Shown here: piece after piece, positions 16,000-48,410 of the stretch
How positions within the stretch are numbered: the stretch's first letter is position 1
Layout: every line of letters starts with the position of its first letter
Virus record (IMG/VR): IMGVR_UViG_3300032288_003288
DNA length: 64,000 nt
Direction: 5' to 3' (one strand)
Source: a virus
The notes under the pieces: model-generated
What the model saw: the letters and a program-made list of their open reading frames with translations, nothing else
Told to the model about the DNA's origin: nothing
Database searches by the model: none
Made by a program: the position numbers and the translations under genes

Positions 16000-16670
16000 C
16001 TCTCGGGACTACGTACTATAACAATCCCGAGCATCTAGTTAGGTTTGTAAAAAATCATTTGCCTTACGTCGACGAGCTTATCGTGGTCGACGACGCGTCT
16101 CCTGATCCTGCGATAGATCATCTACCTCAAGATCCAAAGATCAAGCTGTATCGTGTGACCAAGGACTATGGTTTCAATTCACACGGCTGTCGCAATCTTA
16201 TTATGAAAGAGAGTTCGAACGACTGGGTAATCTTGTTAGATGTAGACAGAAACTTTCCTCATGCAGACCATGACATTCCATATCTCAAGCGCCGGCCTCT
16301 GAAAGAAGACACGCTCTATAGATTCATGGCCAACACGATATGGAATCTAAACAAAGGGGCACATGAATCTGTCAATGACTTTATGATCCATCGATCACAC
16401 TTCTTCAGCGCAGGAGGATACGACGAAGAACTTATTGGCGTCAGAGACGGTGATAGACAGTATTTCGAACAGCTTAAGCACTTTGGTACTGAAGAGTTGT
16501 TGCCTCAGATTCATATGTACTTGATGCGGAAGCCGTCTCGCGGCAAAAAAGAACGCTCCCCAAAAGATAAGAAGGGGAGCGCTTACATATATGGAAAGAT
16601 CAGGAGAAGAATGAAGAGACCTGATCCGAACAAACCCATCTTGACCTTTGAATGGACTCAGCTCTTATAG
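15975..16670 (+). CDS. Glycosyltransferase, GT-A fold (GT2 with GT7-like C-terminus)
   Basis: TYYN, LIVVDDAS, RNL, LLDVD (DxD) and GGYDEE motifs. Confidence 0.85.
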   Translation: MDREERKLTLGTTYYNNPEHLVRFVKNHLPYVDELIVVDDASPDPAIDHLPQDPKIKLYRVTKDYGFNSHGCRNLIMKESSNDWVILLDVDRNFPHADHDIPYLKRRPLKEDTLYRFMANTIWNLNKGAHESVNDFMIHRSHFFSAGGYDEELIGVRDGDRQYFEQLKHFGTEELLPQIHMYLMRKPSRGKKERSPKDKKGSAYIYGKIRRRMKRPDPNKPILTFEWTQLL

Positions 16671-17233
16671 ACTACGATTACGTATAGATCTATGATGGTG
16701 GTCTCTTTATCCTTCCTGACATTGTGCCAGATCCAGTTTGTATTGACTCTTACATTCTTGGTCTTACTAGGATATACTTCTATACGATAGTCGCCGACGT
16801 TCTTTATTCTGTCTACGATGATGTCTAGACATTCTTTTCCCATGACATCTTCGATGACGTAGGCATGTTCAAACACGTCACATAGATTTTCGAACGTCTG
16901 AATGATGTGCTTATAGAAGTGTGAACCGTCGTCTATAATGACGTCGTAGTTTCCTAAAATATCTTTGATTGCTGGATCAGTAGAATCGTGTAACACGATC
17001 TTCGCGCCAGATGCTTCTATCGAGGCATCAAACTTTGCATCAGTAATATCCACGCCAGTCAAATCACAGTAAGGGAAAAGAGTGGCCCAAGCGAGCAGCG
17101 AGTGTCCCTTTAGAACGCCCACTTCCAAGATGGATTTAGGCGGATCTACAAAAACCTTCTCATATACTTCGTGATAGTTGTGTGAGCCAGCTTTGTCTGT
17201 CAGACAGGTTTCAAAGACTTCCTTAATCTTCAT
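16658..17233 (-). CDS. Class I SAM-dependent methyltransferase (sugar O-methyltransferase-like)
   Basis: TDK...HNY, ILEVGVLKGHSL, YDVIIDDGSH and YVIEDV motifs. Confidence 0.85.
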   Translation of the reverse strand: MKIKEVFETCLTDKAGSHNYHEVYEKVFVDPPKSILEVGVLKGHSLLAWATLFPYCDLTGVDITDAKFDASIEASGAKIVLHDSTDPAIKDILGNYDVIIDDGSHFYKHIIQTFENLCDVFEHAYVIEDVMGKECLDIIVDRIKNVGDYRIEVYPSKTKNVRVNTNWIWHNVRKDKETTIIDLYVIVVYKS

Positions 17234-18206
17234 GCTTGAAATCGCCTAGATCGAACTTGGTGCCCTTCATCTTATTGATGGCGACCATGTCGTTGTTCTT
17301 CCAGACCAACACTTCGTTGTCCTCATAGAGAAAGTCGCAGTCCTTACAGAATGATACCTCGTCGAATCTCTTCTCGGCATGCATCTGACGAAGCCACTGG
17401 TAGCGTTCACCGTTCCATACTTCCTCAAGTGACTTGCCTTCGAGTGTACCGAGGTCTGCTTCTGCGTCTCGTCCAAGTGTCTGACAACATGGAGCTACAG
17501 TCAACTTGCCGCCGTTGACTCCGCCTGCCCGAACTGTCAGGTCAGGACTAAACGGTCGGCCACAAGTCTTACGCTCGCCTCTGCGCTTATAGTCCACATC
17601 ATAGACGCCAGACCAGTTGTGCATCTTCCAGATCTCAGCTTTCGTGCCGACTCTGTCGATAAAGTTTTTCTGATACTGTTCTACTTCCCAATCTACTTTA
17701 TCGTTGTCCAAGATCAAGTGATACGAGGCCACAGTACAGTCAGCCTCTTTAAGAGCTATATAATTTATCATGTTTTGCGCATTGGAAATTACGTGCTCGA
17801 AAGCGTCACGATCCATCCACTGCTTATACGTCTCGCGATCGTAACCGATGACTGAGAATCTCGCGAGTGCTAGACCGGCATCGACACATTCGCGCATTAA
17901 GTCTCCACGTAGGTTGAATCCATTCGTGTAGATGAAAGGCTTTGCGCCATACTTACGAACGATGGCGATGTATTCGGGCAGATTACGATTCAGTGTAGGT
18001 TCGCCAGATCCTTCAAGATTAACGACGTTTAATCCTGCTGCAGCTGCCTCTGCTACGATACGTTCGAAGTCTTCAAGAGACATTTTCTTGAGCCAGTCTT
18101 TGCCACGACCAGGATTTGTCTGCGGGCACATCTGACAAGAGTAGTTACATCCTCCGTTGATCTCGATGACTGCTCTGTCAATAGACAAAGGTATTGAATA
18201 GCTCAT
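17223..18206 (-). CDS. Radical SAM enzyme with SPASM/twitch auxiliary cluster domain
   Basis: CNYSCQMC (CX3CX2C), GSGEPTL, YTNG and C-terminal CGRPF...PCC...CKDC. Confidence 0.92.
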   Translation of the reverse strand: MSYSIPLSIDRAVIEINGGCNYSCQMCPQTNPGRGKDWLKKMSLEDFERIVAEAAAAGLNVVNLEGSGEPTLNRNLPEYIAIVRKYGAKPFIYTNGFNLRGDLMRECVDAGLALARFSVIGYDRETYKQWMDRDAFEHVISNAQNMINYIALKEADCTVASYHLILDNDKVDWEVEQYQKNFIDRVGTKAEIWKMHNWSGVYDVDYKRRGERKTCGRPFSPDLTVRAGGVNGGKLTVAPCCQTLGRDAEADLGTLEGKSLEEVWNGERYQWLRQMHAEKRFDEVSFCKDCDFLYEDNEVLVWKNNDMVAINKMKGTKFDLGDFKHED

Positions 18207-18954
18207 GATCTTCTGCCTTCTTATAATCTGTTAAGTACTTCTCGTACATTCTTCGCACTTCGTTCACTCTCACTTTGGCTTTACGCGCATACACCCGCGG
18301 ATCTGCATCTAAGTATCTCTGTGGATCTTTCTCGAGTACAGCTTGCGGTATCAATACGCTGTTGAGTTTTCTACGCCTGCACAACACCACTAGAGGCTTC
18401 CACATAAACTTGAACAGCTGATGTGCCAAGCCATCGTACCCGATGCCCCACTCACACGTTCGAATCAGCTCCACGACTTCGGCCACGGGTGTACGATATG
18501 TGACCTCTCGCACGTCGTATCCCATATCAGCAAGCTTGTCTCGAATGGCAGGCCAGTGTTTGATAGCCGGATCTTTTCCCATTCCTGGAAAACTGACGTT
18601 GTGTTCGCTCGTCCACATGACAACTCTCTGAGGAACTATCTCGTTCTGCAACGTAGAGTACCACAACCCATGCAAAGGATTCCACTCGTCTAACTGATTG
18701 TAGAACCTAAACTTCGGCGTACTGTTGAACTCATGAGACACTGTGACATCGCCGTCTCTCATGATACTCTTTATGTATTCGCATCTGTCGTGTAGAGTTT
18801 CTACGTCTGTCTCATGAAACAGATGATCTCGCGACTCCGACCAATGAAACTTTATTTCGACCGAACGCTGATACTTTAGACTGGCGGTATAGGCGTATCC
18901 TAGACCGGTGACAAAGTCACCGTACCCGACTCCAGTCCTCCACTCTACCTTCAT
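18178..18954 (-). CDS. Putative GT-B glycosyltransferase (GT9-like)
   Basis: N-terminal GVGYGD and C-terminal ELIRTCEWGIGYDGLAHQL resemble GT9 motifs; island context. Confidence 0.6.
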   Translation of the reverse strand: MKVEWRTGVGYGDFVTGLGYAYTASLKYQRSVEIKFHWSESRDHLFHETDVETLHDRCEYIKSIMRDGDVTVSHEFNSTPKFRFYNQLDEWNPLHGLWYSTLQNEIVPQRVVMWTSEHNVSFPGMGKDPAIKHWPAIRDKLADMGYDVREVTYRTPVAEVVELIRTCEWGIGYDGLAHQLFKFMWKPLVVLCRRRKLNSVLIPQAVLEKDPQRYLDADPRVYARKAKVRVNEVRRMYEKYLTDYKKAEDHELFNTFVY

Positions 18955-19610
18955 AGAATCTCTACGTCAAACTCACCGCCCGAGATGTCAGTGATCATGT
19001 CTTTCCACATCTCTTTGTGATCGATGACAAATGCGATAGTAACTCGCTGCTTCTTGGTCTCGGCCATGTGCCAAAACTCTTTGCCCTTTTCAGTCTTTTC
19101 ATTTGGATAGTATCCTACACGTACGTTCCAACCAGGCTGATCTTGAAGCTTGACTATATCTTTCTTGTCATGATCCCAAAATGAGAAGTTGCCGTCTCCG
19201 TCCTGAGAATACGTGAATAGAATGTTGTAACCAGGAGCGTTACCGTTGTGGTGCCATCCGATATATCCGTCGTCTGGATAGCCCATGATCAGAGCATTTC
19301 TCTGAACACCGAGACGACGAATGACTAGGCTGATCTTATCCCTCAGGCGCTCTACTGGCTCTGGATCTCTGTGATGCACCTGAGTCATACCGAATCCCCA
19401 GACTCCTTGCGGATATCCATAGTGGCGCCAATCATGTTTCATCGCCTCGTTAAGATATTCGCGGCTAGTCGGATGCAGATCAGGGATTCTTTTGTCTACG
19501 ATAGGTTTGCTCGACTTGATGATCTTGTCTACTTCACCAGTATAGAAATCTTCAATTATATTCGATAATAGAGTCAGCAGCCGATCGTTTTTTAACGGTA
19601 CGTTTTTCAT
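18951..19610 (-). CDS. Putative cupin-fold/2OG-Fe(II)-like oxygenase
   Basis: YPDDGYIGWHHN...FWH....KQRVTIAF pattern (H-x-N...H...R) resembles a double-stranded beta-helix oxygenase. Confidence 0.55.
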   Translation of the reverse strand: MKNVPLKNDRLLTLLSNIIEDFYTGEVDKIIKSSKPIVDKRIPDLHPTSREYLNEAMKHDWRHYGYPQGVWGFGMTQVHHRDPEPVERLRDKISLVIRRLGVQRNALIMGYPDDGYIGWHHNGNAPGYNILFTYSQDGDGNFSFWDHDKKDIVKLQDQPGWNVRVGYYPNEKTEKGKEFWHMAETKKQRVTIAFVIDHKEMWKDMITDISGGEFDVEIL

Positions 19611-20409
19611 TAATCTTGTCCTGTATATTTTGCCACGTGGCTGGCATCTTACTCCAAGTCGACTTATCGACCTGAGTAATCACTGGTGGACCGTCAAGAT
19701 CTTCTGGAAGGTCTTGTCCTGTGGAATTCCACCTACGTGACAAGATCTTGATGTCCAAAGGATTGAATTTACTGTACTGAGGAAACATGCCGATTCTACT
19801 TCCAACCGTCATGGTCCATAGAGTAAACATATCAAACTGCTGCCACTCACGATATGCAAACTTTTCATGTGGCCACTTCGTTCGTCGCTGTTTGACATAC
19901 TCATCAAACCAAGTCTGCATAAAGTCTAGGTTCAAGTCAGTGGTATGATATCCCCACATAGATCCATGATAGATCGGCTCATATTTCCTAGCTTTATCTA
20001 TATGCGCCCACTTTGGATTTCCTACAGTATAGAGCAAATTACTTCCACAGAACAGATCACACTCGTCTAGAAAATCATGCATCTTCTTGATGTCTCTGTG
20101 TCGAATCATAGAATCTGCGTCGATGTAGATCGTCCGTTTTGTGTAAGGAGTGCGGGCCATGCACCACATCTTTGTCCTATAGTGAATAGGAATGTCTGTA
20201 ATAATAGTGTCAAATAACTCTTCTGCTCTGCCTTCCTCGTCGACGAAGTTCTCATGAGTAAACAACGTGACGTGAGCATCAGGATAGTAGTCTCTGAGAG
20301 TTTGACAAGATATTAGAGCTAGCTCATAATATAGAACGTCGCGAGAAGCTACGTAGATGAATCCTACGTCTTTCTCTCTGCCGTTATCATACCGGATCTT
20401 GAGGCTCAT
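19552..20409 (-). CDS. Glycosyltransferase, GT-A fold (GT8-like)
   Basis: GFIYVA, K...M..TPY..TIYIDADS (DxD), DMFTLW and RWN. The likely start is ATG 20409 (MSLKIR) rather than 20451. Confidence 0.75.
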   Translation of the reverse strand: MSLKIRYDNGREKDVGFIYVASRDVLYYELALISCQTLRDYYPDAHVTLFTHENFVDEEGRAEELFDTIITDIPIHYRTKMWCMARTPYTKRTIYIDADSMIRHRDIKKMHDFLDECDLFCGSNLLYTVGNPKWAHIDKARKYEPIYHGSMWGYHTTDLNLDFMQTWFDEYVKQRRTKWPHEKFAYREWQQFDMFTLWTMTVGSRIGMFPQYSKFNPLDIKILSRRWNSTGQDLPEDLDGPPVITQVDKSTWSKMPATWQNIQDKINEKRTVKKRSAADSIIEYN

Positions 20410-20908
20410 TCTTCTTCTTTTCTTTTTCGAACTGCATGTCTTCGATCTCATCGAAGATGTCGATGAAGGACTTTCCAGTTTCCTTCATATATTCTGTGCA
20501 TAATACAGATAGGACTAAGTTTAGCAAATGAATGCTTGGTGCTCTGCGCACTGCAGCCTTATTTTGAGGAGCTGCGTTTTGAACAAAAGGTAACTCGAAT
20601 GCTCGTGTCTTGGCATCAAACAGTTGCTTTAGAATGTCGTTCTGAACAGCAGCCTTGCGCTTCTTATCATGAAACTCTGCGTCTCTACGGCGCTTGGTTT
20701 CTAGATCATTACGCGCCTTACGCATAGCCTCTACGTCGTGTTCGTCCATGATTCGATCCCAAAGATCGCTCACTCCACGAACTCGATTCTTAGGAACTTC
20801 GATCTCAGCATTGGTCTCGACGCCGTTCTCGGCGACCAAGATCATGCGCACTCGACTCTTTTCAAGATCGATGAATTCAGGTCTCTTAATTATCGGATAT
20901 TTGGTCAT
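20387..20908 (-). CDS. Hypothetical protein
   Basis: 173-aa ORF overlapping both neighbours in the operon; no motif recognised. Confidence 0.6.
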   Translation of the reverse strand: MTKYPIIKRPEFIDLEKSRVRMILVAENGVETNAEIEVPKNRVRGVSDLWDRIMDEHDVEAMRKARNDLETKRRRDAEFHDKKRKAAVQNDILKQLFDAKTRAFELPFVQNAAPQNKAAVRRAPSIHLLNLVLSVLCTEYMKETGKSFIDIFDEIEDMQFEKEKKKNEPQDPV

Positions 20909-21650
20909 GCTCTTTCTTTCTTAATACGACGATATACTCGGTGGTGTTATCATATTTTCCTTTGGTGACCATCTTGGCACCTAGATTGTCGTGTGAATAC
21001 ACGTTTATCTCGTGACCTTCTTTTTCAAGCTCTACCAATTTATTATTCAAAGCCAACAGCTCTAGTTCGCCGTAGCGATGGCTGACGTCTTCAATAAAAT
21101 ATAGACCTCCTGGCTTTAGATATTCCCAGCCATTTGTCAACGTAGGGAGCTGTTCGTTAGAAGGATGGTGTCCGCCATCGTCTATAATGACGTCAAATTC
21201 TTTACCCCACAGTTCATACCAATCTGTCTCCTGCCTTGTATCAAAGTAACACTTTTTGATAGTATTGTACACAGGAAATCTGCGAGAAATCTCTTGCATC
21301 TCTGCAGTTCTCGATGGATCGATGACGTTGTCGATGCCGGTGAGCTTGGCATTCTTGAAGTATCTCTGCCAAGCCAAAAGACTCCATCCGAAGAAGATAC
21401 CTATCTCTAATATGTCTAAAGCTTCATCTCGCTTAGAAGAGAGATACTTGCTATAGACTCTGTCGTATCCTCTCCATCCGGCTCGATCAGTCTCATCTGC
21501 CTTACGACCGACTTTGATCAGCGCTGGGTTAGAAGCCACCTGTTTGGCAGTGTATCGATTGTGGTGTGGATTATAGTTTAAATACTCTCTGAGAGTTGGA
21601 TCACTCTCAGGCAAGTACGTATATGGTATAGCATGATCAAATATCATCAT
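20886..21650 (-). CDS. Class I SAM-dependent methyltransferase, related to 16658-17233
   Basis: ILEIGIFFGWSL, GID, FDVIIDDGGH and LKPGGLYFIEDV motifs. Confidence 0.88.
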   Translation of the reverse strand: MMIFDHAIPYTYLPESDPTLREYLNYNPHHNRYTAKQVASNPALIKVGRKADETDRAGWRGYDRVYSKYLSSKRDEALDILEIGIFFGWSLLAWQRYFKNAKLTGIDNVIDPSRTAEMQEISRRFPVYNTIKKCYFDTRQETDWYELWGKEFDVIIDDGGHHPSNEQLPTLTNGWEYLKPGGLYFIEDVSHRYGELELLALNNKLVELEKEGHEINVYSHDNLGAKMVTKGKYDNTTEYIVVLRKKEHDQISDN

Positions 21651-22297
21651 ATCTTTTTAAACTCATGAAACTTCTCCGGAGGCCAATGCTCTGGATGCTT
21701 ATTGCAAAAATGATCTACAGTATTACCGACTTCATCGTTCATTACCTGGTTACTACATGCAACGTACTTCTTATGACGCTCACTGACCACCGTATTTTTC
21801 CAGTCAGAGTATGCAGCGATGTGTCCGTAAGGTCCGCAACCTATAATACTATCTATACACCTTGTCACGAGCTCTTTTGCAAACTGTGGTTGAATAACGT
21901 AGCTACCCATTGCAGCTTTGTCGTAGAAGATCATTCCATATGAAGGATCATACCAAAGCTTTTCCGGATGTTCGAGGTATGTATCGTGTTCTAACACCAT
22001 GATGGGTTCGTTTAAAAATACGGATTCTTGCCACAGTTGAAAATGACTGTACCAACAGGCACGTTCTGTGGGAGTGATGTCTGCCTTAAGGCCATGCATC
22101 AGATACTTCTTGTCTGTCCGATACTTGACAAACTTCAGCTCTTTTAGTCTGTGCAGATCGTCAGGAGTTACTGCGTCGAAGCGTTCTACTTTAATGCCGA
22201 CCGCTTCCCACGACGGTGTACAGTAGTCGGCGTAGTACTCTGAAGCTTTGTTTCCTTTGACCACGATCATGTAGCATTTCAAATCAGATAGTTTCAT
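21647..22297 (-). CDS. Glycosyltransferase family 25-like
   Basis: ERFDAVTP, E.AC..SH..LW and IMVLEHD motifs typical of GT25/Lex2B-type enzymes. Confidence 0.8.
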   Translation of the reverse strand: MKLSDLKCYMIVVKGNKASEYYADYCTPSWEAVGIKVERFDAVTPDDLHRLKELKFVKYRTDKKYLMHGLKADITPTERACWYSHFQLWQESVFLNEPIMVLEHDTYLEHPEKLWYDPSYGMIFYDKAAMGSYVIQPQFAKELVTRCIDSIIGCGPYGHIAAYSDWKNTVVSERHKKYVACSNQVMNDEVGNTVDHFCNKHPEHWPPEKFHEFKKI

Positions 22298-22308: not shown

Positions 22309-24378
22309 TTATGGGAGGTCAGCCGTGTATGTCTTGTCGTACACATTATCGTATGCTTCTCCATAAGATAGATCATACTGCGCATCATATGACTCATCGA
22401 ACGTATTGTCATAGTCTGTTGCATATGGAGATTCATATAGAGAAGTGTATGTAACTTCGAAGTTTCCTGTATAGTCTGTATCATACAGAGACGTTTCGAA
22501 CGTGCCCACATAAGTCACGACATTGGTGTCCGAAAGATATGTCGTGTCGTATACTTCTGTTTCGAAAGAAACATCGTATGAAGATTCGAATGACACGTCA
22601 TACTCTGTCACCAACTCATAGTTTGTTGCAGCCGAATATACACCGCCGTAGACGTTTTCATACGTAAGATCATAAGTCGTCGTGTAGTCTGTCAGATAGT
22701 CTATCGCATAGAGTGTTGTGAACGTGGCGGTGTAACCTAGAGTATAGTCTGTAGTATAGTCAGAGGCATACGCTGGACCGACGTATGTATCAGAGAAAGC
22801 TGCCGTTGTAGTAAAGTCTGCTTCATAGTTTGCAGCACTCTGATATTGAATTGAACCAAAGTCTCCGGTGTAGGTAGCGCCTCCACCAAAAGATGCTGCA
22901 TCATAATCTTCAGGACCGAGAAAGAAATCAATATTTTTGACACCGTTGAAGAATACTACGCCCTGGAATTCTCCTGTCCCGGTATAGCTCAGCGTATATT
23001 GTAAAGAGGCAAAGTCTGATTGATATGCGCCGGTGTAGCCTATGAACCCAGCATAAGTTCCAACATAAGTGGTGCTGCCAGTGTAGTCAGTGGTGTATGA
23101 CCCCGCAAAATCTCCGGTATACGTAGCGGAAAAGTTTACGTTGAAGTCGGTATTAAAGCCTACATCAGAATAGTCTGTGGTATAGCTGTTCTGATAATTC
23201 GTATCGAATCCCAGATTATATTCTGCAGCATAAGATAGCGCAGAAGTAAAGTCTATGAAGCCAGAGTAATCTGCGCTGACCGTGTATAGTGTCGCTGGTC
23301 CCACATAAACAATGTCGTACAACGTAGCATAGTCTGCAGAGTATGTTGGACCGACAAAGTTTCTAATATAGACGCCGCCGTATTCGTCGGTATAGTCATC
23401 GATAAAGCTAGCGTCATAGTCTTCAGCGGCATAAGGTGGGCTGACGAATGGACCAATGTAGTTCTGATTAAACCCGGCAGCTACATAGTTAGTTCCATCA
23501 TAAGTTCCAAGATATGGACCTGTATAAGTTATAGATTCATACGATGTTGTAGTGAAGCTTGCTCCGTCATAGTTTTGGGCAGCTGGCCCGCTATATGTTG
23601 CAAGATATGATACTGTTGGTCCTACGTATGTTAATACGTACGGAGCGCCTTCGAAGTCGCCTTCATATGTCCGGAGATATGAGGGGTTGTAGGTATTAGT
23701 ATAAGTGGCAGTTGATCCATATAAACCAGAAAAGTCTGTGCCAGCATATGACAGGACGTAAGACAGCTGATAGCCGCCGCTGGGCCCAGCGTATATCGCA
23801 ACAAGAGTATCATACTCTAGAGCTGGTGTTACTTCTGTTGAATATATAGCGTTGAAGTCTGCTAAATAATCACTGCCTCCGTAGCTGTTGCCGGCGCCGG
23901 CATTGGCATACAACAAATCGTCATAGTCTGTGTTACCTCCAGAATAACTTAGAGCATAGCCCGTCTCAAGAGTTATATAGTCTCCTACGAAGTCTAATAG
24001 GTAGTCTGACTGATATTCTGTAAGATATTCATCTAACACATAACTCAAAGCGTAGTGCGCAGTATACGTCCCAGCATATGCTGTGTCGTATGTAGCAAGA
24101 TATAAAGCGGTAAAGTCGCCTTGATATACTATATCGTAGTTAGATTCGAAAGTGGCAAGATAAGAGTCTTGGAATGAACCTTCATACACACCCACAAATT
24201 GGTTGTCGAAAGTTCCAGTGTAAGTGTCTGAGAAGGCAGAATCATACGCGCCAAGATATGTCGTGTCATAAGTTCCAAGATAAGGCACACCATAAGAACC
24301 GACGTAAGAGCTCTCATAGCTCGGGCCCGAGTCTGCTATAATTGGGCTTAATCTTACAGTCTTGAACCTTACGACCAT
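22309..24378 (-). CDS. Tyr/Thr/Asp-rich protein with aromatic residue every fourth position
   Basis: 689-aa ORF made almost entirely of (Y/F)xxx units, e.g. YESSYVGSYGVPYLGTYDTTYLGAYDSAF; in the fibre operon. Confidence 0.8.
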   Translation of the reverse strand: MVVRFKTVRLSPIIADSGPSYESSYVGSYGVPYLGTYDTTYLGAYDSAFSDTYTGTFDNQFVGVYEGSFQDSYLATFESNYDIVYQGDFTALYLATYDTAYAGTYTAHYALSYVLDEYLTEYQSDYLLDFVGDYITLETGYALSYSGGNTDYDDLLYANAGAGNSYGGSDYLADFNAIYSTEVTPALEYDTLVAIYAGPSGGYQLSYVLSYAGTDFSGLYGSTATYTNTYNPSYLRTYEGDFEGAPYVLTYVGPTVSYLATYSGPAAQNYDGASFTTTSYESITYTGPYLGTYDGTNYVAAGFNQNYIGPFVSPPYAAEDYDASFIDDYTDEYGGVYIRNFVGPTYSADYATLYDIVYVGPATLYTVSADYSGFIDFTSALSYAAEYNLGFDTNYQNSYTTDYSDVGFNTDFNVNFSATYTGDFAGSYTTDYTGSTTYVGTYAGFIGYTGAYQSDFASLQYTLSYTGTGEFQGVVFFNGVKNIDFFLGPEDYDAASFGGGATYTGDFGSIQYQSAANYEADFTTTAAFSDTYVGPAYASDYTTDYTLGYTATFTTLYAIDYLTDYTTTYDLTYENVYGGVYSAATNYELVTEYDVSFESSYDVSFETEVYDTTYLSDTNVVTYVGTFETSLYDTDYTGNFEVTYTSLYESPYATDYDNTFDESYDAQYDLSYGEAYDNVYDKTYTADLP

Positions 24379-24384
24379 GTTACG

Positions 24385-25836
24385 TCACTTTACAAGCATA
24401 GATTCTAGATACTCTATCCGTTGTTTGAGCGACCTGATCTCATTCAACATAGGCACTATTAATTTATTATAGCTAACACCGCGGAGTTGTGGTTGACCGT
24501 CCACCACGTCGTAGAATACCAGACTGGGATTGACCAGCTCTGTCTCTTCTGCGATCAGACCATACTCTATAGGAGATTCTGCCTCTTCAGTATAGTTGCC
24601 TACTACATCCTTCTTTCGATAGTTGAAAGAGACTGGTCGTAGATCGTGTAACCACGCCGTATTGGTCATGGTTTCGATGTTAGTCTTGGCAGCTTGAATA
24701 GAAGACACGTAGCCCATCAAGCCAGTGTCATCGATGAACAGGTCACGATTTGTGACGCCTACTGTCGTGTTGTAGATCGTTTGAGCAGTTATGGTTGTCG
24801 CACCGTATAGTGTGATTCCGTTGTTGGAGATCACCACGTTGGCCGTGGTGTTGCCGATGTCGAGCATTGCCATGTTGGCTAGCAGCTCTCCAGAAACATA
24901 GACGTTTCCGCTGACACTCAACTTATCTGCAGGAATAGAGTTGCCAAAACCGATGTTGCCGTTTGTTACGAAGTATGCAGATGTGCCGACTGTGAATGCA
25001 TTGACAGAATACGTCAGTGCGCCGGAACCTGTTCTACCTAGTTTAGAAGTAGTGTCAGCGTTACCAAACACTATGTAGCCGTTATTGGCGCTTTGTTGTC
25101 CTCTAATACCGATCGTATCTGCAGTATTGATGTCGCCTATCCAGGCATCGTCGCCGACTTTGTAGTTTTGACCATTGCCATTATTGGTCGACAATACTTG
25201 ATCTGCAGTTATGGATGTAGAATTGATAGTGGTGTTTACAGAAGAGTTGCCGACATAGATGTTAGTGCCAGTAAACGCCACGTTGGCTTGAAAAGTGTGT
25301 GTATTAGTCCAGGTATACTGCGCAGCTGTATTGATCGACGCCGCGCCTGGACTTGACCAATATACACTAGACCCATCAGAAGTAAGTAATTGTCCACTAC
25401 CACCTAAGCTATTGTTGGCGTATATGCCGAAGATGGACATATCGATAGGTGTATTAAACCTAAAAGCTCCCGATTGAGAAGAACTTAACGTATTTGCATA
25501 GATGTTAAATACAGCGCGTTGACCGCCGGCAGTGTTTGTGGTATAAAACACAAAGTTATCATCGCTCTGTTGTCTCATTCCGACAGAATTGCCGCTTAAA
25601 GCTTTAAAGCTTAAGCCAACTTCGTTATTAAGAGTAATGGATGAAGTGATTGATAAGTTTGTAAGATTTGAGCCCACCTCAAACGACGCAGAGCCGTTAG
25701 ATGAGAAGAGCTTCTTGTCAGCTAGGTTGACCGCGAATTCGCCTGCATCGATGTACGCTCCGTTGGAGCTGTTCGTGGTATTAGGCGTTCTGCCTGACAC
25801 AGACGTACGCTTGATCTGAATCTTAGTATTGGCCAT
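24385..25836 (-). CDS. Tail fibre protein with C-terminal intramolecular chaperone (peptidase S74)
   Basis: N-terminal IQIKR...GEFAVN..DKKLF fibre anchor. C-terminal SS...K.NI...LRPVSFNY...YGLIAEE...V.Y..L followed by a coiled coil. Confidence 0.85.
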   Translation of the reverse strand: MANTKIQIKRTSVSGRTPNTTNSSNGAYIDAGEFAVNLADKKLFSSNGSASFEVGSNLTNLSITSSITLNNEVGLSFKALSGNSVGMRQQSDDNFVFYTTNTAGGQRAVFNIYANTLSSSQSGAFRFNTPIDMSIFGIYANNSLGGSGQLLTSDGSSVYWSSPGAASINTAAQYTWTNTHTFQANVAFTGTNIYVGNSSVNTTINSTSITADQVLSTNNGNGQNYKVGDDAWIGDINTADTIGIRGQQSANNGYIVFGNADTTSKLGRTGSGALTYSVNAFTVGTSAYFVTNGNIGFGNSIPADKLSVSGNVYVSGELLANMAMLDIGNTTANVVISNNGITLYGATTITAQTIYNTTVGVTNRDLFIDDTGLMGYVSSIQAAKTNIETMTNTAWLHDLRPVSFNYRKKDVVGNYTEEAESPIEYGLIAEETELVNPSLVFYDVVDGQPQLRGVSYNKLIVPMLNEIRSLKQRIEYLESMLVK

Positions 25837-26118: not shown

Positions 26119-28128
26119 TTAGAACGTTCCGCCATCCAGAGAATTCCAAACAGGAATTCCTGAAGCCATCTGAAGGACCGTGCCCTCAGTATTGGCTGCC
26201 AACTTGGCCAGCGTATTTGTAGCTGAAGCATAGATCAAGTCGCCAGTGGCGTACGTATTCAAGCCTGTACCGCCAGAAGTCGGCGCCAAAGCTGTTGCCA
26301 ATGTAAGCGAGTTGGCAGTGATAGACACTGCTACCGTTGAGTTGGCTGTTATCGAGACGTTTGTGGCATTAGCGACAAAAGCACCAGTGGTTAGATATGC
26401 TTCAAGTGTGGCTAGAGTGTAACCTGTAGCAGCAGTATTGACTGTAGTCGAGGGTTCTTCGGCCGAACCTGTGAAGAGTTTATAGACACCGTCGGTGGCA
26501 TCTCTGAAAAGACCGGTAAACTTGGCTCCAGTGGCTCCATACTGTCCGTATAGACCGATGTCAAGGATGTCTGTGGACGAGTTGCCGTTGGCAAGTTCGA
26601 TCAGAGAATCTTTTACTGTCAGGTTTGTGGTGTCGACCGTCGTCAGAGTACCTAGAACGTTTAGGTTTCCTGACAATGATAAGTCAGTGATCGACAGAGC
26701 CGAGTTGACGTGCACACCGGTGCTGTTCAGAGTCAGTGTAGAACCAGTGGTCAGAGTGACAGCGTCGGCAAGTACACTGATACCGTTAGCCGCACCCACA
26801 TGTACGCCCGTGGCATTAGATACTAGGCCGTCGCCACCTACTACATTGATGCCAGATGCATCGACTGAGATGCCGTTGGCACCGTCCGCAAATACGCCTG
26901 TCGAGTTGGCAATGATACCGTTGTTGGCTACGACTGCGATCGTAGGTGTTCCGCCTTCTGTAGTAGAAGATCCAGAAATACCTACACCGGCAGAGATTGT
27001 AGCTACATAGTTGCCAGACGTCTGTGTGCCTAGAGCGACGTCGCCTGACAATTGTGAGGTGGCGATAGAGAGCGTCGCATCGTTGACGTATAGGCCAGTG
27101 GCATTGGCGATCAGTGTGGAGTCGCCAGATACGTTGATGAAGACGCCTGTAGAATTCGCTACAAGACCAGAGTTGGCAAGGACGTTAACTCCGTCAGCCG
27201 TTACGCTGATACCGTTTGCTCCATCTACCGAGACAGTGTCTGTAGCTACCGTGATACCGTTTCCAGCACCGACGTCGAGAGTCACGTCTCCTGAACTGCC
27301 ACCACCCGTCAGACCGTTGCCGGCCGTTACACCAGTGACGTCGCCTGTAGTAGGCGTAGTCCAGTAAACTGTAGATCCGTTGGATGTCAGAACTTGACCA
27401 GCTGTACCAAGGCCACCGTTGGCTGAGATGCCAGTAGTAGTTCCGATAGTAAGTTGAGTGCTGTTGGCGATTATCGAGCTGCCTACACTAATTATGGCAG
27501 CGTTGACAGTCGATGTAGCAAAGACGTTAGCTGTAGTAAGGGTTGTGCCGGTCAAAGACGAATATACAGAGTCATTGCCAGCAGCAAGATCTGTAGTATT
27601 GATACGACCAGAAACACCGACTCCACCCGCGACTGTGAGAGCGCCTGTTGTGGTATTGGAACTGGTCGTAGTGCCAGTGATAGCAGCATTTCCTACAGAG
27701 ACTTTGTCGGTCGTCTTATTATAGGTAAATCCAGCGTCACCCGCCAGAGAACCGCCATCGTTAAACTGAACTTGTGTGTCAGAACCTGCAACGCCAGATG
27801 TGGGAGTAGCCCAATATACACCGCCAGTAGAGTTTGATGATAGAACCTGTCCACCTGTACCAGAAGCTCCGTTGGCATAGATATAGGATGGTTGAAGGTT
27901 GGCAACGATGATCTTATCGATACCAGAGGTCGAGTTGGCGACTAGGGCCTGATTGGCCGTAAGTACACCAGGATTTCTCAGACCGCCGATAGCGACCGAT
28001 GTTCCGTTTCCGTTAGGCGCACCAATAAAGAGTACTTCACTCGCCGAGGTATAAGCTAGCTCGCCGTTGGCAAGTCCTGTGACTGTACCGTTGGCGGTAG
28101 ACCTTTTGATTTGAATCTTATTGGCCAC
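26119..28128 (-). CDS. Tail fibre protein (Gly/Thr/Asn-rich, internal repeats)
   Basis: IQIKRS...LANGELAY anchor, repeated ANGISV / ANSTGV units, ends LDGGTF. Confidence 0.8.
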   Translation of the reverse strand: MANKIQIKRSTANGTVTGLANGELAYTSASEVLFIGAPNGNGTSVAIGGLRNPGVLTANQALVANSTSGIDKIIVANLQPSYIYANGASGTGGQVLSSNSTGGVYWATPTSGVAGSDTQVQFNDGGSLAGDAGFTYNKTTDKVSVGNAAITGTTTSSNTTTGALTVAGGVGVSGRINTTDLAAGNDSVYSSLTGTTLTTANVFATSTVNAAIISVGSSIIANSTQLTIGTTTGISANGGLGTAGQVLTSNGSTVYWTTPTTGDVTGVTAGNGLTGGGSSGDVTLDVGAGNGITVATDTVSVDGANGISVTADGVNVLANSGLVANSTGVFINVSGDSTLIANATGLYVNDATLSIATSQLSGDVALGTQTSGNYVATISAGVGISGSSTTEGGTPTIAVVANNGIIANSTGVFADGANGISVDASGINVVGGDGLVSNATGVHVGAANGISVLADAVTLTTGSTLTLNSTGVHVNSALSITDLSLSGNLNVLGTLTTVDTTNLTVKDSLIELANGNSSTDILDIGLYGQYGATGAKFTGLFRDATDGVYKLFTGSAEEPSTTVNTAATGYTLATLEAYLTTGAFVANATNVSITANSTVAVSITANSLTLATALAPTSGGTGLNTYATGDLIYASATNTLAKLAANTEGTVLQMASGIPVWNSLDGGTF

Positions 28129-28748: not shown

Positions 28749-28756
28749 TATTTATA
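28749..28756 (-). promoter_or_regulatory. Late promoter TATAAATA heading the fibre-to-glycosyltransferase transcript
   Basis: Exact consensus, 22 nt before the ATG at 28726. Confidence 0.85.
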
Positions 28757-30917
28757 AAAGAACCTTGCTCTTTGAGGAGATTGATTTCAACTCAGAAGTT
28801 TCAAGGTCGCCCAATTCGATGGCTTCCCAAGTAGTTCCGTTTGTAGAAGCCAAAATAGGATAAAGAATGTCGTCTGTAATGATATAGAAACGATTGAGGG
28901 TTGTAGAGAATGTGATGTCCACGATGTTTGTAGAAGGATCTAGAGCTTGAATTGCTCCGGATGATTCTCCAGTATTTGACCACGTAGCTCCGCCGTCTGT
29001 GCTGGTTACTAGACCGCGCGATTCTCCTACTGCCACCAAAATACTTGCAGTGGGGCTATACTCTACTGCATTAAAGTTAAACGAGTCTAGAGCAGTGCCT
29101 GTATATGCACCCTCATAAGACGTGCTATACGTTCCAGTATATCCACCGGTATATGTAACTTCATACGAAGTAGTGTAAACTGTATCATATGTAGAAGTAT
29201 AGTCTCCTTCATATGTATTGACATACGTACCAGCGTAACTTGTTTCATATAGGCCGCTCGTAGTGGGGCTAACAAAAGTTCCGATATAAGTTAGATCGTA
29301 CGCTGTTTCATATGGTATCGGATCGGCAAAGCTATTTGTGTAGAGTGTGGCATATAACGCTGGAGTTATGAATGCTGGGCCAAGATAGTCTGTGCTACTG
29401 TCATATCCGACTCCAGCCCCCTGCGTATAAGTGGCCGTAAAGTTCGCAGGACCCTGAAACTCTCCTACATCTTTAGTACCATTAAAGAACACTACTCCTT
29501 GGAAAAAATCAAATCCTGTTCCAGAATAAGTCATTATATATGAAATACTACTTCCTGAGTCGTAAATGATTCCGCTATTATAGACGGGTTCATAAGCACC
29601 TGCATACAAATCGTCAGTGTAGTCAGTACCATAATCATGCGAGTATGTTGCTATATAAGTCGTCGTAAATGTTGCTCCAATGTACTCGTTCTCATACGTA
29701 ATACCACCGAAAGTAGGTCCAGCATACTGTTGAGTAAATGGAGTTGATCCATCAAAATTAGCATTGAAAGATCCGAGATACGTGAGATCAAAGGCTGCAT
29801 CATAGTTGGTGTCAAATGTAGTAGATTGATACTCGTTGATGTCAGCAAAAATGGTGCCGTCATAAGAGGTAGCAAATTCTTGACCGTACTGCGCTAGACC
29901 ATATCCTGTAAAGGCCGTTCCTCCATATACAAGATCCTGATAGCCTCCAGTGACATATGCGTCGTACGAAGTTCCACCAAAATTATCTAGATCTGCGACT
30001 GCTCCAGGTCCAACGTAAGTAGTTGCTGGACCATCATAGAATGTAGAGTAGTCTATGTTATAGATTGTTTCTGCTATTTCATACTCACTTGCACTATACG
30101 AATCATACGATATATTAGGCCCGGCGTAGCTTAAAGCACCAAGGTAGGACGGCACGCCAGCTACATACGCGGTATCATTTGAATAATTTGCTTCGTATAC
30201 AATATCATATACTGTGTTATCATAGTTAGTGACAGAGGGGATATATCCCAAATCCCACATACTCAATGGATTTCTAGCATAGAGAAGTCCACCCCCGCTG
30301 CATGCAGCCACAAACGTGTTACTGGATGAGTCGAAAGTGATATCTTTGATGTCGACGTTTGTGGGCATGTCGACTTTGGTCCATGACCCGGGGATGCCTG
30401 TACTAGAGACAAACATAGTACCAGCATCGCCTGCCGCGAGATAGAGATCACGAGTGGTAGAGTAGTATGCTGCGTTTAGTTTATCTCCCGGAGTAAGATT
30501 GGTATCGTTCCAACTACTTACACCAGTCTCTGAGTCGACTACAAAAGCATCTAAATACTTGCCGCCTACAACGATCCACTTGGCTTTAGTGGTACCGTCG
30601 GCATTCTCGTTGACGACGATATCATTGAGATCGTAGTTATAACTACCTGCAGCGTCGAGCCACAACTCTCCACTAGTTCTACTATAATAGATATTTCTGT
30701 TGGGCGTCTCTGTAGTAGTCGCGACGAGCAAGTCTGATACAGCAAAGATCTTATTAAAATCTACTGCAACGTTTGTGATTCTTTCGTTCCACGTGACGCC
30801 GTCGTTACTTCTATAGATGGCAGCTTTTCCATCCGTAGTCTTTCCTGCAACGACTAACTCGAAAGCAATGGTGGTTTGAGATGATGATGCCAGCATTGCC
30901 AGCATAGCGCCGCTCAT
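28752..30917 (-). CDS. BNR/Asp-box beta-propeller protein interrupted by a Tyr-periodic tract
   Basis: Asp-box repeats SNDGVTW, STDGGATW and STNGTTW at both ends; about 380 aa of (Y/F)xxx repeats in the middle. Confidence 0.75.
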   Translation of the reverse strand: MSGAMLAMLASSSQTTIAFELVVAGKTTDGKAAIYRSNDGVTWNERITNVAVDFNKIFAVSDLLVATTTETPNRNIYYSRTSGELWLDAAGSYNYDLNDIVVNENADGTTKAKWIVVGGKYLDAFVVDSETGVSSWNDTNLTPGDKLNAAYYSTTRDLYLAAGDAGTMFVSSTGIPGSWTKVDMPTNVDIKDITFDSSSNTFVAACSGGGLLYARNPLSMWDLGYIPSVTNYDNTVYDIVYEANYSNDTAYVAGVPSYLGALSYAGPNISYDSYSASEYEIAETIYNIDYSTFYDGPATTYVGPGAVADLDNFGGTSYDAYVTGGYQDLVYGGTAFTGYGLAQYGQEFATSYDGTIFADINEYQSTTFDTNYDAAFDLTYLGSFNANFDGSTPFTQQYAGPTFGGITYENEYIGATFTTTYIATYSHDYGTDYTDDLYAGAYEPVYNSGIIYDSGSSISYIMTYSGTGFDFFQGVVFFNGTKDVGEFQGPANFTATYTQGAGVGYDSSTDYLGPAFITPALYATLYTNSFADPIPYETAYDLTYIGTFVSPTTSGLYETSYAGTYVNTYEGDYTSTYDTVYTTSYEVTYTGGYTGTYSTSYEGAYTGTALDSFNFNAVEYSPTASILVAVGESRGLVTSTDGGATWSNTGESSGAIQALDPSTNIVDITFSTTLNRFYIITDDILYPILASTNGTTWEAIELGDLETSELKSISSKSKVLL

Positions 30918-40391: not shown

Positions 40392-40396
40392 TTAAA

Positions 40397-42409
40397 TCAA
40401 AACTCCAGAATTAGTTTTATTTTTTCGTTAGTAGTAGAATCTCGTGTAACTGCGTCGATGTTCTCTAAGTATAGGATCTCGCCGCTGTCTTTAACCAAAT
40501 CTCCTGGGTATTTATTATTGACAGTGAAGACCGCATTGCCAGAAACCACGTTTCCTGTATTGGCTAAGTTGTGCTTCTCGTTCGTTACCCAGAGTGTGGA
40601 TGAATTTTGAAAGAATACGTTTGCTTCTGGTCTATCTTCTGCATCTCCAGTCCATCCACTTTGATAGACAAGAGAGTCTTCTGAGAAGACACCTACACTG
40701 TTAGCTCCCTCAAGCTTAACTAGCTGCATAAACGTATTGAAATCGTTAGTCGATCTGCCGTTGTTATTGACGGTGTTGATAGTAATCTTTGTAAAAGATT
40801 CCGTGCCGATTAAAGCTTCTCCAGAAGCAAACTTGCCGTCTGCGTCCGTGACCCAAAGATCTCCACTTCCATAGTCGGTAACAGTAGCAGACGCTGTCGT
40901 TCTAATGATAGAAACGTTCATCGAGGAGACGTTTGAAGTAATCTGCGTGCTCAGCGTCAGTTGAGTAGAGTTGGCTATGCTGTTGACGGTGTTGTAGTAG
41001 TACACAGTAGAGTTCGAGAGTAGAATCTTATCCCCTACTTGAAGAGCGTCAGAAAATAGTGTACCTGTTCCTTTGAGAATGGTATTACTAGACGCAGTGT
41101 TGACTGCTGCAGTGCCTACTACCTGAATAGGTCTATACTGATATACTGTCTCGCCTATGTCAAAGATTTCTGCACCGCCGCTATATGTGATATACACGTT
41201 CGCGAACTTAGGATTCTTTAGAATTCCGATCGATCTAAAGTCGTTCGACGAGATAACGTTGTTCGACTCTGTATTAGATACTCTGACGCTGATGCAGATC
41301 TTATTTGCGCCAAGTTCTTGAACAGGATCGTAAGAATGTCCTATGGCGGGAGAGATGATAGAGCGAACATTTGCTTCGACGTCTACGCTGACAACGTTGG
41401 AAGCAAGAACCTTTGTGACTGCGCTTCTATAGCCTTCGCCTTCTTTTCCAGGAAGAACCTCGATCTTATAGATCGAGTTAGAAGATGTAGTATTGACTAG
41501 TCCCCAAGCCTGAGCTTCTACTGTCTCACTTCCGTCACCGTAGATCTTTACTTGTGGAAAGACTTTATACGTGGTAGTGGTCGTAGGAGTATTGGTAAAC
41601 GGCGTATCTATGGAAGCTCTCTTGGTAGCTCCGACGTAGCTAACTACTGTACGATACTCAGTGTTTGCACCAGTCGTAATTTCAATGATACAGTCTTTGT
41701 AGTAGTCGTTGAAAGCAGAAGCTGTGCTGCCGAAGACGTAGTCTGTAGAAACGCCTCCCGGTTGAATGTCTGCAGCAGTGAATGTGCCAGTTGTGTGATT
41801 GTCGTATCCTGCTCCTCCGTCGTTGATCAGAATGATCTCGACCGAGCCTCCTACTGCGCTAGCACGGGCATTGGCATCTACCAGTGCTGGCATGTGTGCC
41901 GTCGTAGTAAACTTTGCCCACGTAGAAGAGTCAATAGTGTACAGATACTTCCATGCATAGCCGTCTGACGTAAAGACTACAGAGTTCGAGGTGCCAGTGG
42001 GTTCTGTCCCGTTGGAGCCAGTGTTAGCTCCATCGTTATTATATAAGCACTTGTACACTCTATAGTTGGTACCGTTGGCAACAGCTGTATAAAATTCCTT
42101 ATTAAAAAGATCTACGTCTTGATCGTCATACATTGCATACGGAGTGTTGTAGCTGTAGATGATCTTGCCTACCATGTGCTGAACGTCGCTGTTGGCAACT
42201 TTCTTGCCGAGGATCATGTTGTCGTATGTCTTGACCACCTTCTCATATTGGCTGTCAAAGGCTGGCTCTACGATCGGCTCGTTGACGAATTCCGTATGCT
42301 TTCCAAGGAACAGATAGTACTGATCATTTTGAGGCTCACTGAGAGACTCAACGAATTGAATAGCGTTGTGTACGTTAAACGTCTTTGAAACTAGTTTTTC
42401 TGTTGCCAT
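40397..42409 (-). CDS. gp8: Baseplate wedge subunit
   Basis: YRVYKCLYN, DGYAWKYLYTI, DFRSIGILKNP and SGEILYLEN...R...EKIKLILEF motifs. Confidence 0.9.
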   Translation of the reverse strand: MATEKLVSKTFNVHNAIQFVESLSEPQNDQYYLFLGKHTEFVNEPIVEPAFDSQYEKVVKTYDNMILGKKVANSDVQHMVGKIIYSYNTPYAMYDDQDVDLFNKEFYTAVANGTNYRVYKCLYNNDGANTGSNGTEPTGTSNSVVFTSDGYAWKYLYTIDSSTWAKFTTTAHMPALVDANARASAVGGSVEIILINDGGAGYDNHTTGTFTAADIQPGGVSTDYVFGSTASAFNDYYKDCIIEITTGANTEYRTVVSYVGATKRASIDTPFTNTPTTTTTYKVFPQVKIYGDGSETVEAQAWGLVNTTSSNSIYKIEVLPGKEGEGYRSAVTKVLASNVVSVDVEANVRSIISPAIGHSYDPVQELGANKICISVRVSNTESNNVISSNDFRSIGILKNPKFANVYITYSGGAEIFDIGETVYQYRPIQVVGTAAVNTASSNTILKGTGTLFSDALQVGDKILLSNSTVYYYNTVNSIANSTQLTLSTQITSNVSSMNVSIIRTTASATVTDYGSGDLWVTDADGKFASGEALIGTESFTKITINTVNNNGRSTNDFNTFMQLVKLEGANSVGVFSEDSLVYQSGWTGDAEDRPEANVFFQNSSTLWVTNEKHNLANTGNVVSGNAVFTVNNKYPGDLVKDSGEILYLENIDAVTRDSTTNEKIKLILEF

Positions 42410-47843: not shown

Positions 47844-48410
47844 TCATATCATTGTATTTATAGTGATTTGGTTGCTGGTATTCGAGCTAAAAACTATTGT
47901 TACGCCCTTTTCATCTTCCAAAAATGCTTTGAATATCGGTGTTCCAGCTGGAGCAGATACATTTTTTTCTTCTATGGTCTGATTTGATACGGCCATCCTA
48001 TCGACCGCATCAAAGCTATCGAAAGATTTCATCTCACTAGTGATCTGCGCAGTTTTTATTGAAGCTCTAAAGGGAACGAAACGAGTCTCTTTAGTCTTTC
48101 CGGTCTTTTTGTCGTATTCTCTAAACCTAACAATCTCGGTATTGTCGCCTATCTTACGATACTGAAAGTAGTAATTTACTACGTCTTTGTCTTGTGAGTA
48201 TACGACTCGCTCTTTGCTGTCTTTGATAAATGTGTATGAAGAGCTTGGAATTACAGATTTTCCTATGAACTTTGTGATTTCTGCGATGGGATCCATTGAA
48301 ATCCCAGCAGTCCCGTAAAGCTTTTCTGCTGCTTCAGTTCTCTCATCTTGTTCTGTAGGATCGTCTGGATTTGTCTTTATAATTCCAGATAATTCATATA
48401 TCTTTGTCAT
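47844..48410 (-). CDS. Hypothetical protein
   Basis: 188-aa ORF with ATGA-type overlap with the upstream gene; no family recognised. Confidence 0.6.
   Translation of the reverse strand: MTKIYELSGIIKTNPDDPTEQDERTEAAEKLYGTAGISMDPIAEITKFIGKSVIPSSSYTFIKDSKERVVYSQDKDVVNYYFQYRKIGDNTEIVRFREYDKKTGKTKETRFVPFRASIKTAQITSEMKSFDSFDAVDRMAVSNQTIEEKNVSAPAGTPIFKAFLEDEKGVTIVFSSNTSNQITINTMI
47855..47862 (-). promoter_or_regulatory. Late promoter TATAAATA upstream of gp25
   Basis: Exact consensus, about 30 nt before the start. Confidence 0.8.

Follow-up and report, generated by a model that had tools for sequence, protein, structure and literature searches.

Positions 22309..24378 of a 64,000-nucleotide (nt) stretch of viral DNA, hereafter the window, encode P0001, a 689-amino acid (aa) protein of tyrosine/phenylalanine tetrads without an anchor domain, recognized from its open reading frame (ORF) call and composition. 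The coordinates given for this gene in a first-pass annotation, which a model made from the sequence alone, are correct and the gene lies on the minus strand. The window is part of a 133-kb IMG/VR record (IMGVR_UViG_3300032288_003288; 79% complete) and its source virus is a T4-like myovirus. Our best explanation is that P0001 is a late fibrous component of the virion tail which sits in the fiber slot of a conserved gene cassette and is a client of that cassette, possibly a glycosylated one; taken as a whole, this has about an even chance of being correct. Confidence differs among its parts. Judging from sequence and gene position, P0001 is very probably a virion fiber component, its being a client of the cassette is a balanced call, and its actual glycosylation is possible at somewhat less than an even chance. 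By tract similarity and gene position, P0001 belongs to a class of unannotated tail-module proteins of uncultured marine T4-like phages. What is new here is the tract-only form of this class, along with the conserved cassette.

Composition and Periodicity

P0001 is built from few kinds of residue. It contains 109 Tyr and 40 Phe along with 93 Thr, 65 Gly, 64 Asp, 61 Ala, and 60 Ser, and Ser, Thr, and Tyr together account for 262 of its 689 residues (38%). As the first-pass annotation had reported, basic residues are almost absent (three Lys and four Arg, K+R=7) and there is no Cys or Trp; a single His is present and the sole Met is the start. Asp and Glu number 92, the calculated isoelectric point is 4.05 and the net charge is approximately -85.

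The 149 aromatics (Tyr/Phe) are spaced exactly four residues apart in 98 of 148 gaps and five apart in 21 of 148. The autocorrelation of aromatic positions, which had been proposed as a check, confirms period four, with 98 pairs observed at lag 4 versus 31.9 expected (z=15), further positive signals at lags 8, 12, 16, 20, and 24, and nearly no pairs at lags 1-3 (2, 0, and 4, respectively). The earlier statement that a (Y/F)-x-x-x pattern covers nearly all of the protein is right about the rhythm but overstates its extent, considering the proportion of gaps that are exactly four and the looser center. Strict tetrad runs, which are the densest and most regular in the genome, occupy residues 21-137 (24+5 tetrads) and 537-689 (12+4+14), the latter ending in ..YTADLP. 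Nine [YF]-x-G-P motifs interrupt the center (140-535), which also includes a non-repeat island at 470-482 around FQGVVFFNGVK. Within the tetrads, position i+2 is Gly, Ala, Ser, or Thr in 61 of 98 units, and positions i+1 and i+3 are mainly Asp, Thr, Glu, or Ser and less often aliphatic. The first run also has a weak period-8 alternation, with a weak Gly signal at lag 8 (z=2.2).

No tandem DNA repeat underlies this pattern. Tandem Repeats Finder gives only two marginal 12-bp arrays in the gene, 97 of the 98 12-nt tetrad units are distinct, and the nine non-aromatic bases of these units are 31% identical pairwise, with the tetrads comprising 84 different tetrapeptides. The rhythm therefore resides in the protein sequence and not in the DNA, as the first-pass annotation had correctly read.

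An Unannotated Class of Tetrad Fibers

P0001 has no sequence match in Pfam, PHROG, NCBIfam, or the PDB, and no description of a repeat of this type was found in the literature searched. Searched exhaustively with phmmer, 1.84 billion representatives yielded 29 matches at E<1e-3 (best 5.6e-18), all of which align through tetrad tracts set in varied architectures. One group of these matches ends in a Gp38-like adhesin, which supports a fiber role for tetrad tracts. Among 50,697 GenBank phage records, such a protein occurs only in Phage C48C1 (Kyanoviridae, OQ984149.1), where WJE88074.1, a 3347-aa product encoded in the tail-fiber module, is annotated as a "hypothetical protein." No orthologue of P0001 emerged from homologue searches with the whole protein or the motif region, from the related-locus search, or from tblastn against GenBank phages. 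A genome search with P0001 over relatives gave no match either, and is insensitive, since BLAST detects tract similarity there. A DNA pattern of seven Tyr tetrads retrieved mostly AT-rich repeats of giant-virus bins from IMG/VR and only four real fibers.

Canonical members of the class consist of an N-terminal domain of approximately 270 aa (the N-domain), a Tyr tract, and a C-terminal ..[LY][WY][VR]R[IVT]A (..LYVRxA) motif. A hidden Markov model (HMM) of the N-domain, built from 24 members, matches G005, G007, G011, G012 (twice), C48C1, L008, L009, L068, and L112 in hmmsearch, and the N-domain family has no Pfam or PHROG match. By eye, the N-domain (P0011, P0012, L134:3936-5369) resembles two or three repeats of a module of approximately 90 aa with the pattern ..EMTD.E....G.G.Y.L....P..GTW...G...DT....LW.K... 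The domain is absent from P0001 and from every ORF of its own 133-kb record by hmmsearch (best tblastn E 0.058). The C-terminal motif is also absent from P0001, and a regular-expression scan gave no genuine instance elsewhere in the genome. The description of P0001 as a stand-alone protein is therefore accurate, and this state is unusual, as the relatives in the same slot carry both the N-domain and the C-terminal motif and P0001 carries neither.

Genomic Position and Transcription

A tail fibrous role is suggested by the site of the gene in a T4-like tail module, with a Peptidase_S74 fiber gene before it, an enzyme run after it and a late promoter upstream. The features concerned are as follows.

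24385..25836, minus strand: 483-aa tail-fiber-like protein with a C-terminal Peptidase_S74 intramolecular chaperone (PF13884, E 4.7e-5), directly upstream of P0001
28749..28756, minus strand: T4-type late promoter motif TATAAATA, the nearest upstream of P0001 (motif scan)
21647..22297, minus strand: GT25-family glycosyltransferase (GT), a variable member of the run (PF01755, E 1.6e-12)
20886..21650, minus strand: Methyltransf_24-type methyltransferase, likewise variable within the run (domain match)
20387..20908, minus strand: h173, a small charged protein, first gene of a conserved trio (synteny; no Pfam match)
19552..20451, minus strand: h299, candidate GT-A/GT8-like nucleotide-sugar transferase with an invariant DxD, second of the trio (structure comparison, alignment, synteny)
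18951..19610, minus strand: h219, a conserved protein with an invariant W-H-x-N ... H, third of the trio (alignment, synteny)
18178..18954, minus strand: h258, which travels with the radical S-adenosylmethionine (SAM) gene in 65 of 80 loci (locus comparison)
17223..18206, minus strand: radical SAM/SPASM enzyme, not tied to tetrad fibers (family match, locus comparison)
16658..17233, minus strand: second methyltransferase, at the end of the minus-strand run
28752..30917, minus strand: P0003, with a tetrad tract (~220-612) inside a BNR/Asp-box-like protein; shares FQGVVFFNG with P0001
48407..51247, minus strand: P0002, with a tetrad tract (1-445) and a helical tape-measure-like half; collinear with P0001 21-437

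The genes around P0001 are tightly packed. The 483-aa fiber gene ends 6 nt upstream and the GT25 gene starts 11 nt downstream, in agreement with the earlier placement of P0001 as the last fiber-operon gene before GT25. The run then continues with the methyltransferase, h173, h299, h219, h258, the radical SAM/SPASM enzyme, and the second methyltransferase. The opposite strand carries a cupin, KdsA, KdsB, a 2-oxoglutarate oxygenase, and a GT2. The late promoter motif TATAAATA occurs at 10 sites in the window versus 2.0 expected, most of the checked sites lying just 5' of structural genes. None lies between P0001 and the enzyme run, where promoter and terminator consensus scans stay at chance level and no convincing terminator candidate is present. 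Because the nearest upstream motif is that at 28749, with no later one and no convincing terminator, P0001 is probably co-transcribed late with both the upstream S74-chaperone fiber gene and the downstream enzyme run.

Elsewhere in the genome gp48, a gp53-like protein, gp5, gp25, gp6, gp7, gp8, and a VrlC-like giant protein are recognizable. No GenBank phage exceeds 40% identity to its gp6 protein, and the top matches are those of Stenotrophomonas DLP_6, Caulobacter Cr30, and Sinorhizobium phiM12. The 483-aa fiber and a fiber-like protein at 26119-28128 share the N-terminal sequence M-A-N-x-K-I-Q-I-K-R, and a single 820-aa ORF in L134 matches both of them.

A Conserved Fiber Cassette

The gene order downstream of P0001 recurs in two relatives, G011 and L134, as slot protein, GT25, methyltransferase, h173, h299, h219, h258, and radical SAM, with the run enzymes 46-80% identical to their counterparts here, gene by gene. 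The slot protein ahead of the run in these relatives is an N-domain/Tyr-tract protein. Residues 236-443 of P0001 align to the GP-punctuated tract of the L134 slot protein and this alignment beats 300 of 300 segment-shuffled controls (z=5.0). Given the shared gene order and the central tract alignment, P0001 is most simply read as the slot orthologue that lost both ends. It would have kept the tract only, losing the N-domain and the ..LYVRxA end while the regular tetrad runs at both ends expanded.

The slot belongs to a cassette of four genes, namely a Tyr-tract fiber gene followed by h173, the GT8-like h299, and h219. A search of IMG/VR with the h299 alignment recovered 37 loci, 34 of which have upstream flank, and an N-domain fiber lies upstream of h299 in 33 of these 34. 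The fiber ends 410-720 nt 5' of h299 with one small h173-like gene between the two, or 1.9-2.4 kb 5' where GT25 and a methyltransferase intervene, and h219 comes after h299. Clustering of the fibers of these cassettes gives 22 groups at 90% identity and 14 at 50%. The one exception is L282, in which 8 kb of sequence upstream of h299 contains small non-Tyr ORFs and no N-domain fiber. The order fiber-h173-h299-h219 is also found in Phage C48C1, L027, L068, G005, and G007, and is followed by an LtfC-like gene in the first three of these. The trio remains beside the fiber in G005 and G007, although radical SAM and GT25 lie far off in both. Moreover, the fiber block h108-h669-fib483, which is upstream of the slot here, comes after the run in G011 and G012. 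The linkage of fiber and trio survives at least three different rearrangements.

A GT-A glycosyltransferase is the probable product of h299, the middle gene of the trio. It has GT-A features with an Atlas feature score of 0.96, its own model has a predicted local distance difference test (pLDDT) score of 0.75, its template modeling (TM) score to the PF03407/PF01501 (Nucleotid_trans/GT8) clusters is 0.63-0.67, and its DxD is invariant in the alignment. Nothing credible was found for h173, h299, h219, or h258 in Pfam at E values up to 5, and profiles of h258, h299, and h219 have no matches among PDB sequences. In h219, W119-H120-x-N122, H181, and R189 are invariant across 14 homologues and may be a metal site. 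C48C1 has three h219 matches, the best of which (40130-40711) is far from its fiber cassette.

We propose that the cassette proteins most likely act on the fiber. The likeliest action would be glycosylation by the GT-A enzyme of the many Ser, Thr, and Tyr residues of P0001, with the variable GT25, methyltransferase, and 3-deoxy-D-manno-octulosonate (Kdo) genes possibly elaborating the glycan.

Variable Neighbors

No fixed link joins tetrad fibers to GT25, the methyltransferases, or the radical SAM enzyme; for these genes, though not for the GT8-like trio, this is the independent occurrence that the first-pass annotation had named as a refutation of its proposal. The radical SAM enzyme has 343 IMG/VR relatives and 80 of its loci were compared (enzyme 54-80% identical). 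In the closest group (65-80% identity) a Tyr-rich protein with the N-domain and the C-terminal motif stands directly before the run in 10 of 11 loci with upstream flank, whereas 65 loci of the 54-60% group have GT25 and h258 nearby and no N-domain/tetrad protein within 10 kb. L147 (60% identity) has such a protein downstream. Phage C48C1 has a giant tetrad fiber and no GT25, and no radical SAM gene lies beside the fiber in C48C1, G005, G007, L027, or L068. The NCBIfam matches of the radical SAM enzyme are all far below the cut-offs. The suggestion that P0001 is a substrate of its neighbors consequently divides, with synteny in favor of it for the h173/h299/h219 trio and against it for these variable genes.

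A conserved pairing of the radical SAM/SPASM gene with h258 (17223-18954; L132-L211) is seen in 65 of 80 loci, independent of tetrad fibers, and GT25 is near this pair in 55 of 80 loci. The L033 record (G001), a 128-kb phage contig, has seven radical SAM genes within 13 kb (~14-27 kb) and also a tetrad fiber of >1178 aa.

Paralogous Tracts

Dense tetrads occur in two further proteins of the genome, P0002 and P0003, which are paralogous to P0001. In P0002 (946 aa) 445 tetrad residues are fused to a helical, weakly tape-measure-like half, and the tract of P0003 spans approximately 390 residues. Residues 21-437 of P0001 are collinear with 10-442 of P0002 to a degree that periodicity and composition do not account for (z=5.2 versus controls with shuffled inter-aromatic segments), and residues 391-589 align to 368-587 of P0003 via a common FQGVVFFNG motif. 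This motif was found nowhere else in a back-translated scan of IMG/VR or in a collection of 5.8 billion proteins. The tracts of P0002 and P0003 have no significant collinearity with each other (z=1.3). On the strength of the P0002 collinearity and the alignment and shared motif with P0003, P0001 looks like a mosaic of the two tracts plus approximately 100 extra C-terminal residues.

P0002 and a 188-aa gene (47844-48410) are insertions between gp5 and gp25, since gp5 leads directly to gp25 in the relative L131. The gp5 protein is just 242 aa here versus 477 aa in L131 (51% identical), and the C-terminal half of gp5 in the closest relative has no resemblance to P0002.

Fold

The strand-like alternation of the tetrads would place each Tyr on one face together with a small residue, which favors an aromatic ladder in some beta assembly. 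In the model that we prefer, Tyr would alternate with small residues on one face of the beta-strand and be stacked as an aromatic ladder in an oligomeric fiber. Structure prediction gave no confident fold for P0001, whether with AlphaFold2 on the whole protein (16-row alignment, pLDDT 33.7) or on residues 15-147 (27 rows, pLDDT 43.8), or with ESMFold (ESM Atlas, pLDDT 0.30).

Several specific arrangements were considered and set aside. Mirror (hairpin) symmetry is rejected, as alignment of P0001 with its own reverse gives z=0.2 and the spacing palindrome z=0.3. A collagen-like G-X-Y fiber is likewise rejected, Gly autocorrelation at lag 3 being at background (z=-0.1). There is also no support for a triple beta-helix of the gp5 type, given the lack of a Pfam hit (Gp5_C) and a period of four in place of the VxGxxxxx octad, and no tetrads were found in 81 longer gp5 relatives.

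Alternative Explanations

Several points weigh against P0001 being a modified virion fiber. Its presence in the virion, its beta fiber fold, and any modification of it are inferred. It lacks the domain that presumably anchors canonical members; as the genome is 79% complete, the portion not recovered could contain an N-domain gene. Because AlphaFold2 and ESMFold both fail on it, P0001 may be disordered. Within the cassette, h173 and h219 have no recognizable fold or family and could be assembly chaperones rather than modifying enzymes. Synteny alone is no proof of an enzyme-substrate link, since structural modules of T4-like phages often share their gene order and contigs from relatives are not independent samples. 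In addition, a set of 13 GTs with KdsA and KdsB in the cyanomyovirus S-SCSM2R has been interpreted as host cell-wall modification (PMC12801897). This last point also favors the foremost alternative, in which P0001 is a structural fiber and the downstream run is unrelated to it, remodeling host envelope glycans or making a sugar for another purpose, with adjacency reflecting late-operon order. GT25, GT8, and the Kdo enzymes are families of the lipopolysaccharide-core type, and the radical SAM enzyme, h258, and GT25 occur in those 65 loci that have no tetrad fiber nearby. However, the trio stays beside the fiber in 33 of 34 loci and through the rearrangements described, even where the large glycan island lies elsewhere, and it is embedded among late structural genes. 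We consider this alternative improbable, if the most serious of those raised here. In another alternative the radical SAM/SPASM enzyme at 17223-18206 would cross-link the aromatics of P0001 (cyclophane-type or similar). Its gene lies in the same run, and the periodic aromatics do resemble the repeat targets of some SPASM maturases. The constant partner of this enzyme is h258 and not the fiber, however, and the same 65 loci (54-60% identity; L147, at 60%, has a tetrad protein downstream), the five fibers with no radical SAM gene beside them, and the sub-threshold NCBIfam matches leave such cross-linking extremely improbable.

P0001 could also be a co-assembly partner or connector of P0002 and P0003, its N-terminal 440 residues pairing in register with the P0002 tract of equal length and its center and C-terminal part with P0003, so that either supplies the anchor. 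The collinearity with P0002 goes beyond periodicity, the motif shared with P0003 is unique in the collections searched, and the N-domain HMM has no match in the genome; all of this would fit. Plain paralogy, through duplication and recombination, explains the same data, however, and the P0002 and P0003 tracts are not significantly collinear, such that a connector role is decidedly improbable. Even less probable is that P0001 is a decaying, non-functional remnant of an N-domain fiber gene whose anchor was lost in rearrangement. Both conserved family ends are indeed missing and the gene order around the slot is rearranged, but the ORF is intact over 689 codons, is tightly packed in its operon, and has the most regular tetrads in the genome, with aromatics avoided at lags 1-3 and Lys, Arg, Cys, Trp, Met, and His nearly excluded, all of which would be hard to keep without selection. 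A late tail fiber in the cassette slot is still the explanation that we prefer. A bolder version of it would hold that Tyr-tetrad fibers are a new aromatic-ladder fold, obligately matured by a three-gene cassette which includes the GT8-like enzyme, as the first glycosylation system for T4-like virion proteins, and that the fiber of this phage, having lost its anchor, assembles in register together with the two paralogous tracts on a hub-side protein and a propeller. We regard this as unlikely, though somewhat less so than an unrelated enzyme run.

Significance

Tail fibers decide host range. The present class occurs in many uncultured marine T4-like phages, yet it is represented by one GenBank phage record of 50,697, in which it is labeled hypothetical. 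The cassette is a cloneable unit of four genes (fiber, h173, GT8-like, h219) with which to ask whether marine myoviruses glycosylate their fibers, and the same unit allows the fold of the Y-x-x-x repeat to be addressed. As a bare tract with no other domains, P0001 is a convenient test object.

Comparison With Known Systems

Glycosylation of virions by phage-encoded glycosyltransferases is described for mycobacteriophages (Freeman et al., 2023, PMC10527164, as cited in PMC12801897). As far as that citation goes, the likeness lies in phage GT genes beside structural genes and in a hydroxyl-rich structural protein as the presumed acceptor; the phages, GT families, and acceptor proteins differ, and the system proposed here is predicted from genes.

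Some SPASM maturases act on repeat targets, as in the triceptide and CXXX-repeat systems. P0001 differs from these targets in being a protein of 689 aa and not a short precursor, and in having no obligate co-occurrence with a maturase.

The C-terminal triple-stranded beta-helix of T4 gp5 is built on a VxGxxxxx octad. P0001 resembles it in its short-period repeat, in the Gly two residues after the key residue, and in its weak period-8 alternation, and the tetrad protein P0009 touches PHROG 430 (gp5) at E 5.5e-7. The key residue of P0001 is, however, an aromatic at period four, whereas that of gp5 is a Val at period eight.

The closest comparison is with the N-domain/Tyr-tract proteins such as WJE88074.1. 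P0001 shares with them a tetrad tract with [YF]-x-G-P punctuation and the slot upstream of h173, the GT8-like h299, and h219. It differs in lacking the N-domain of approximately 270 aa and the C-terminal motif, and compared with its nearest relatives of this kind its acidity is far greater (K+R 1%) and its strictly regular runs extend further.

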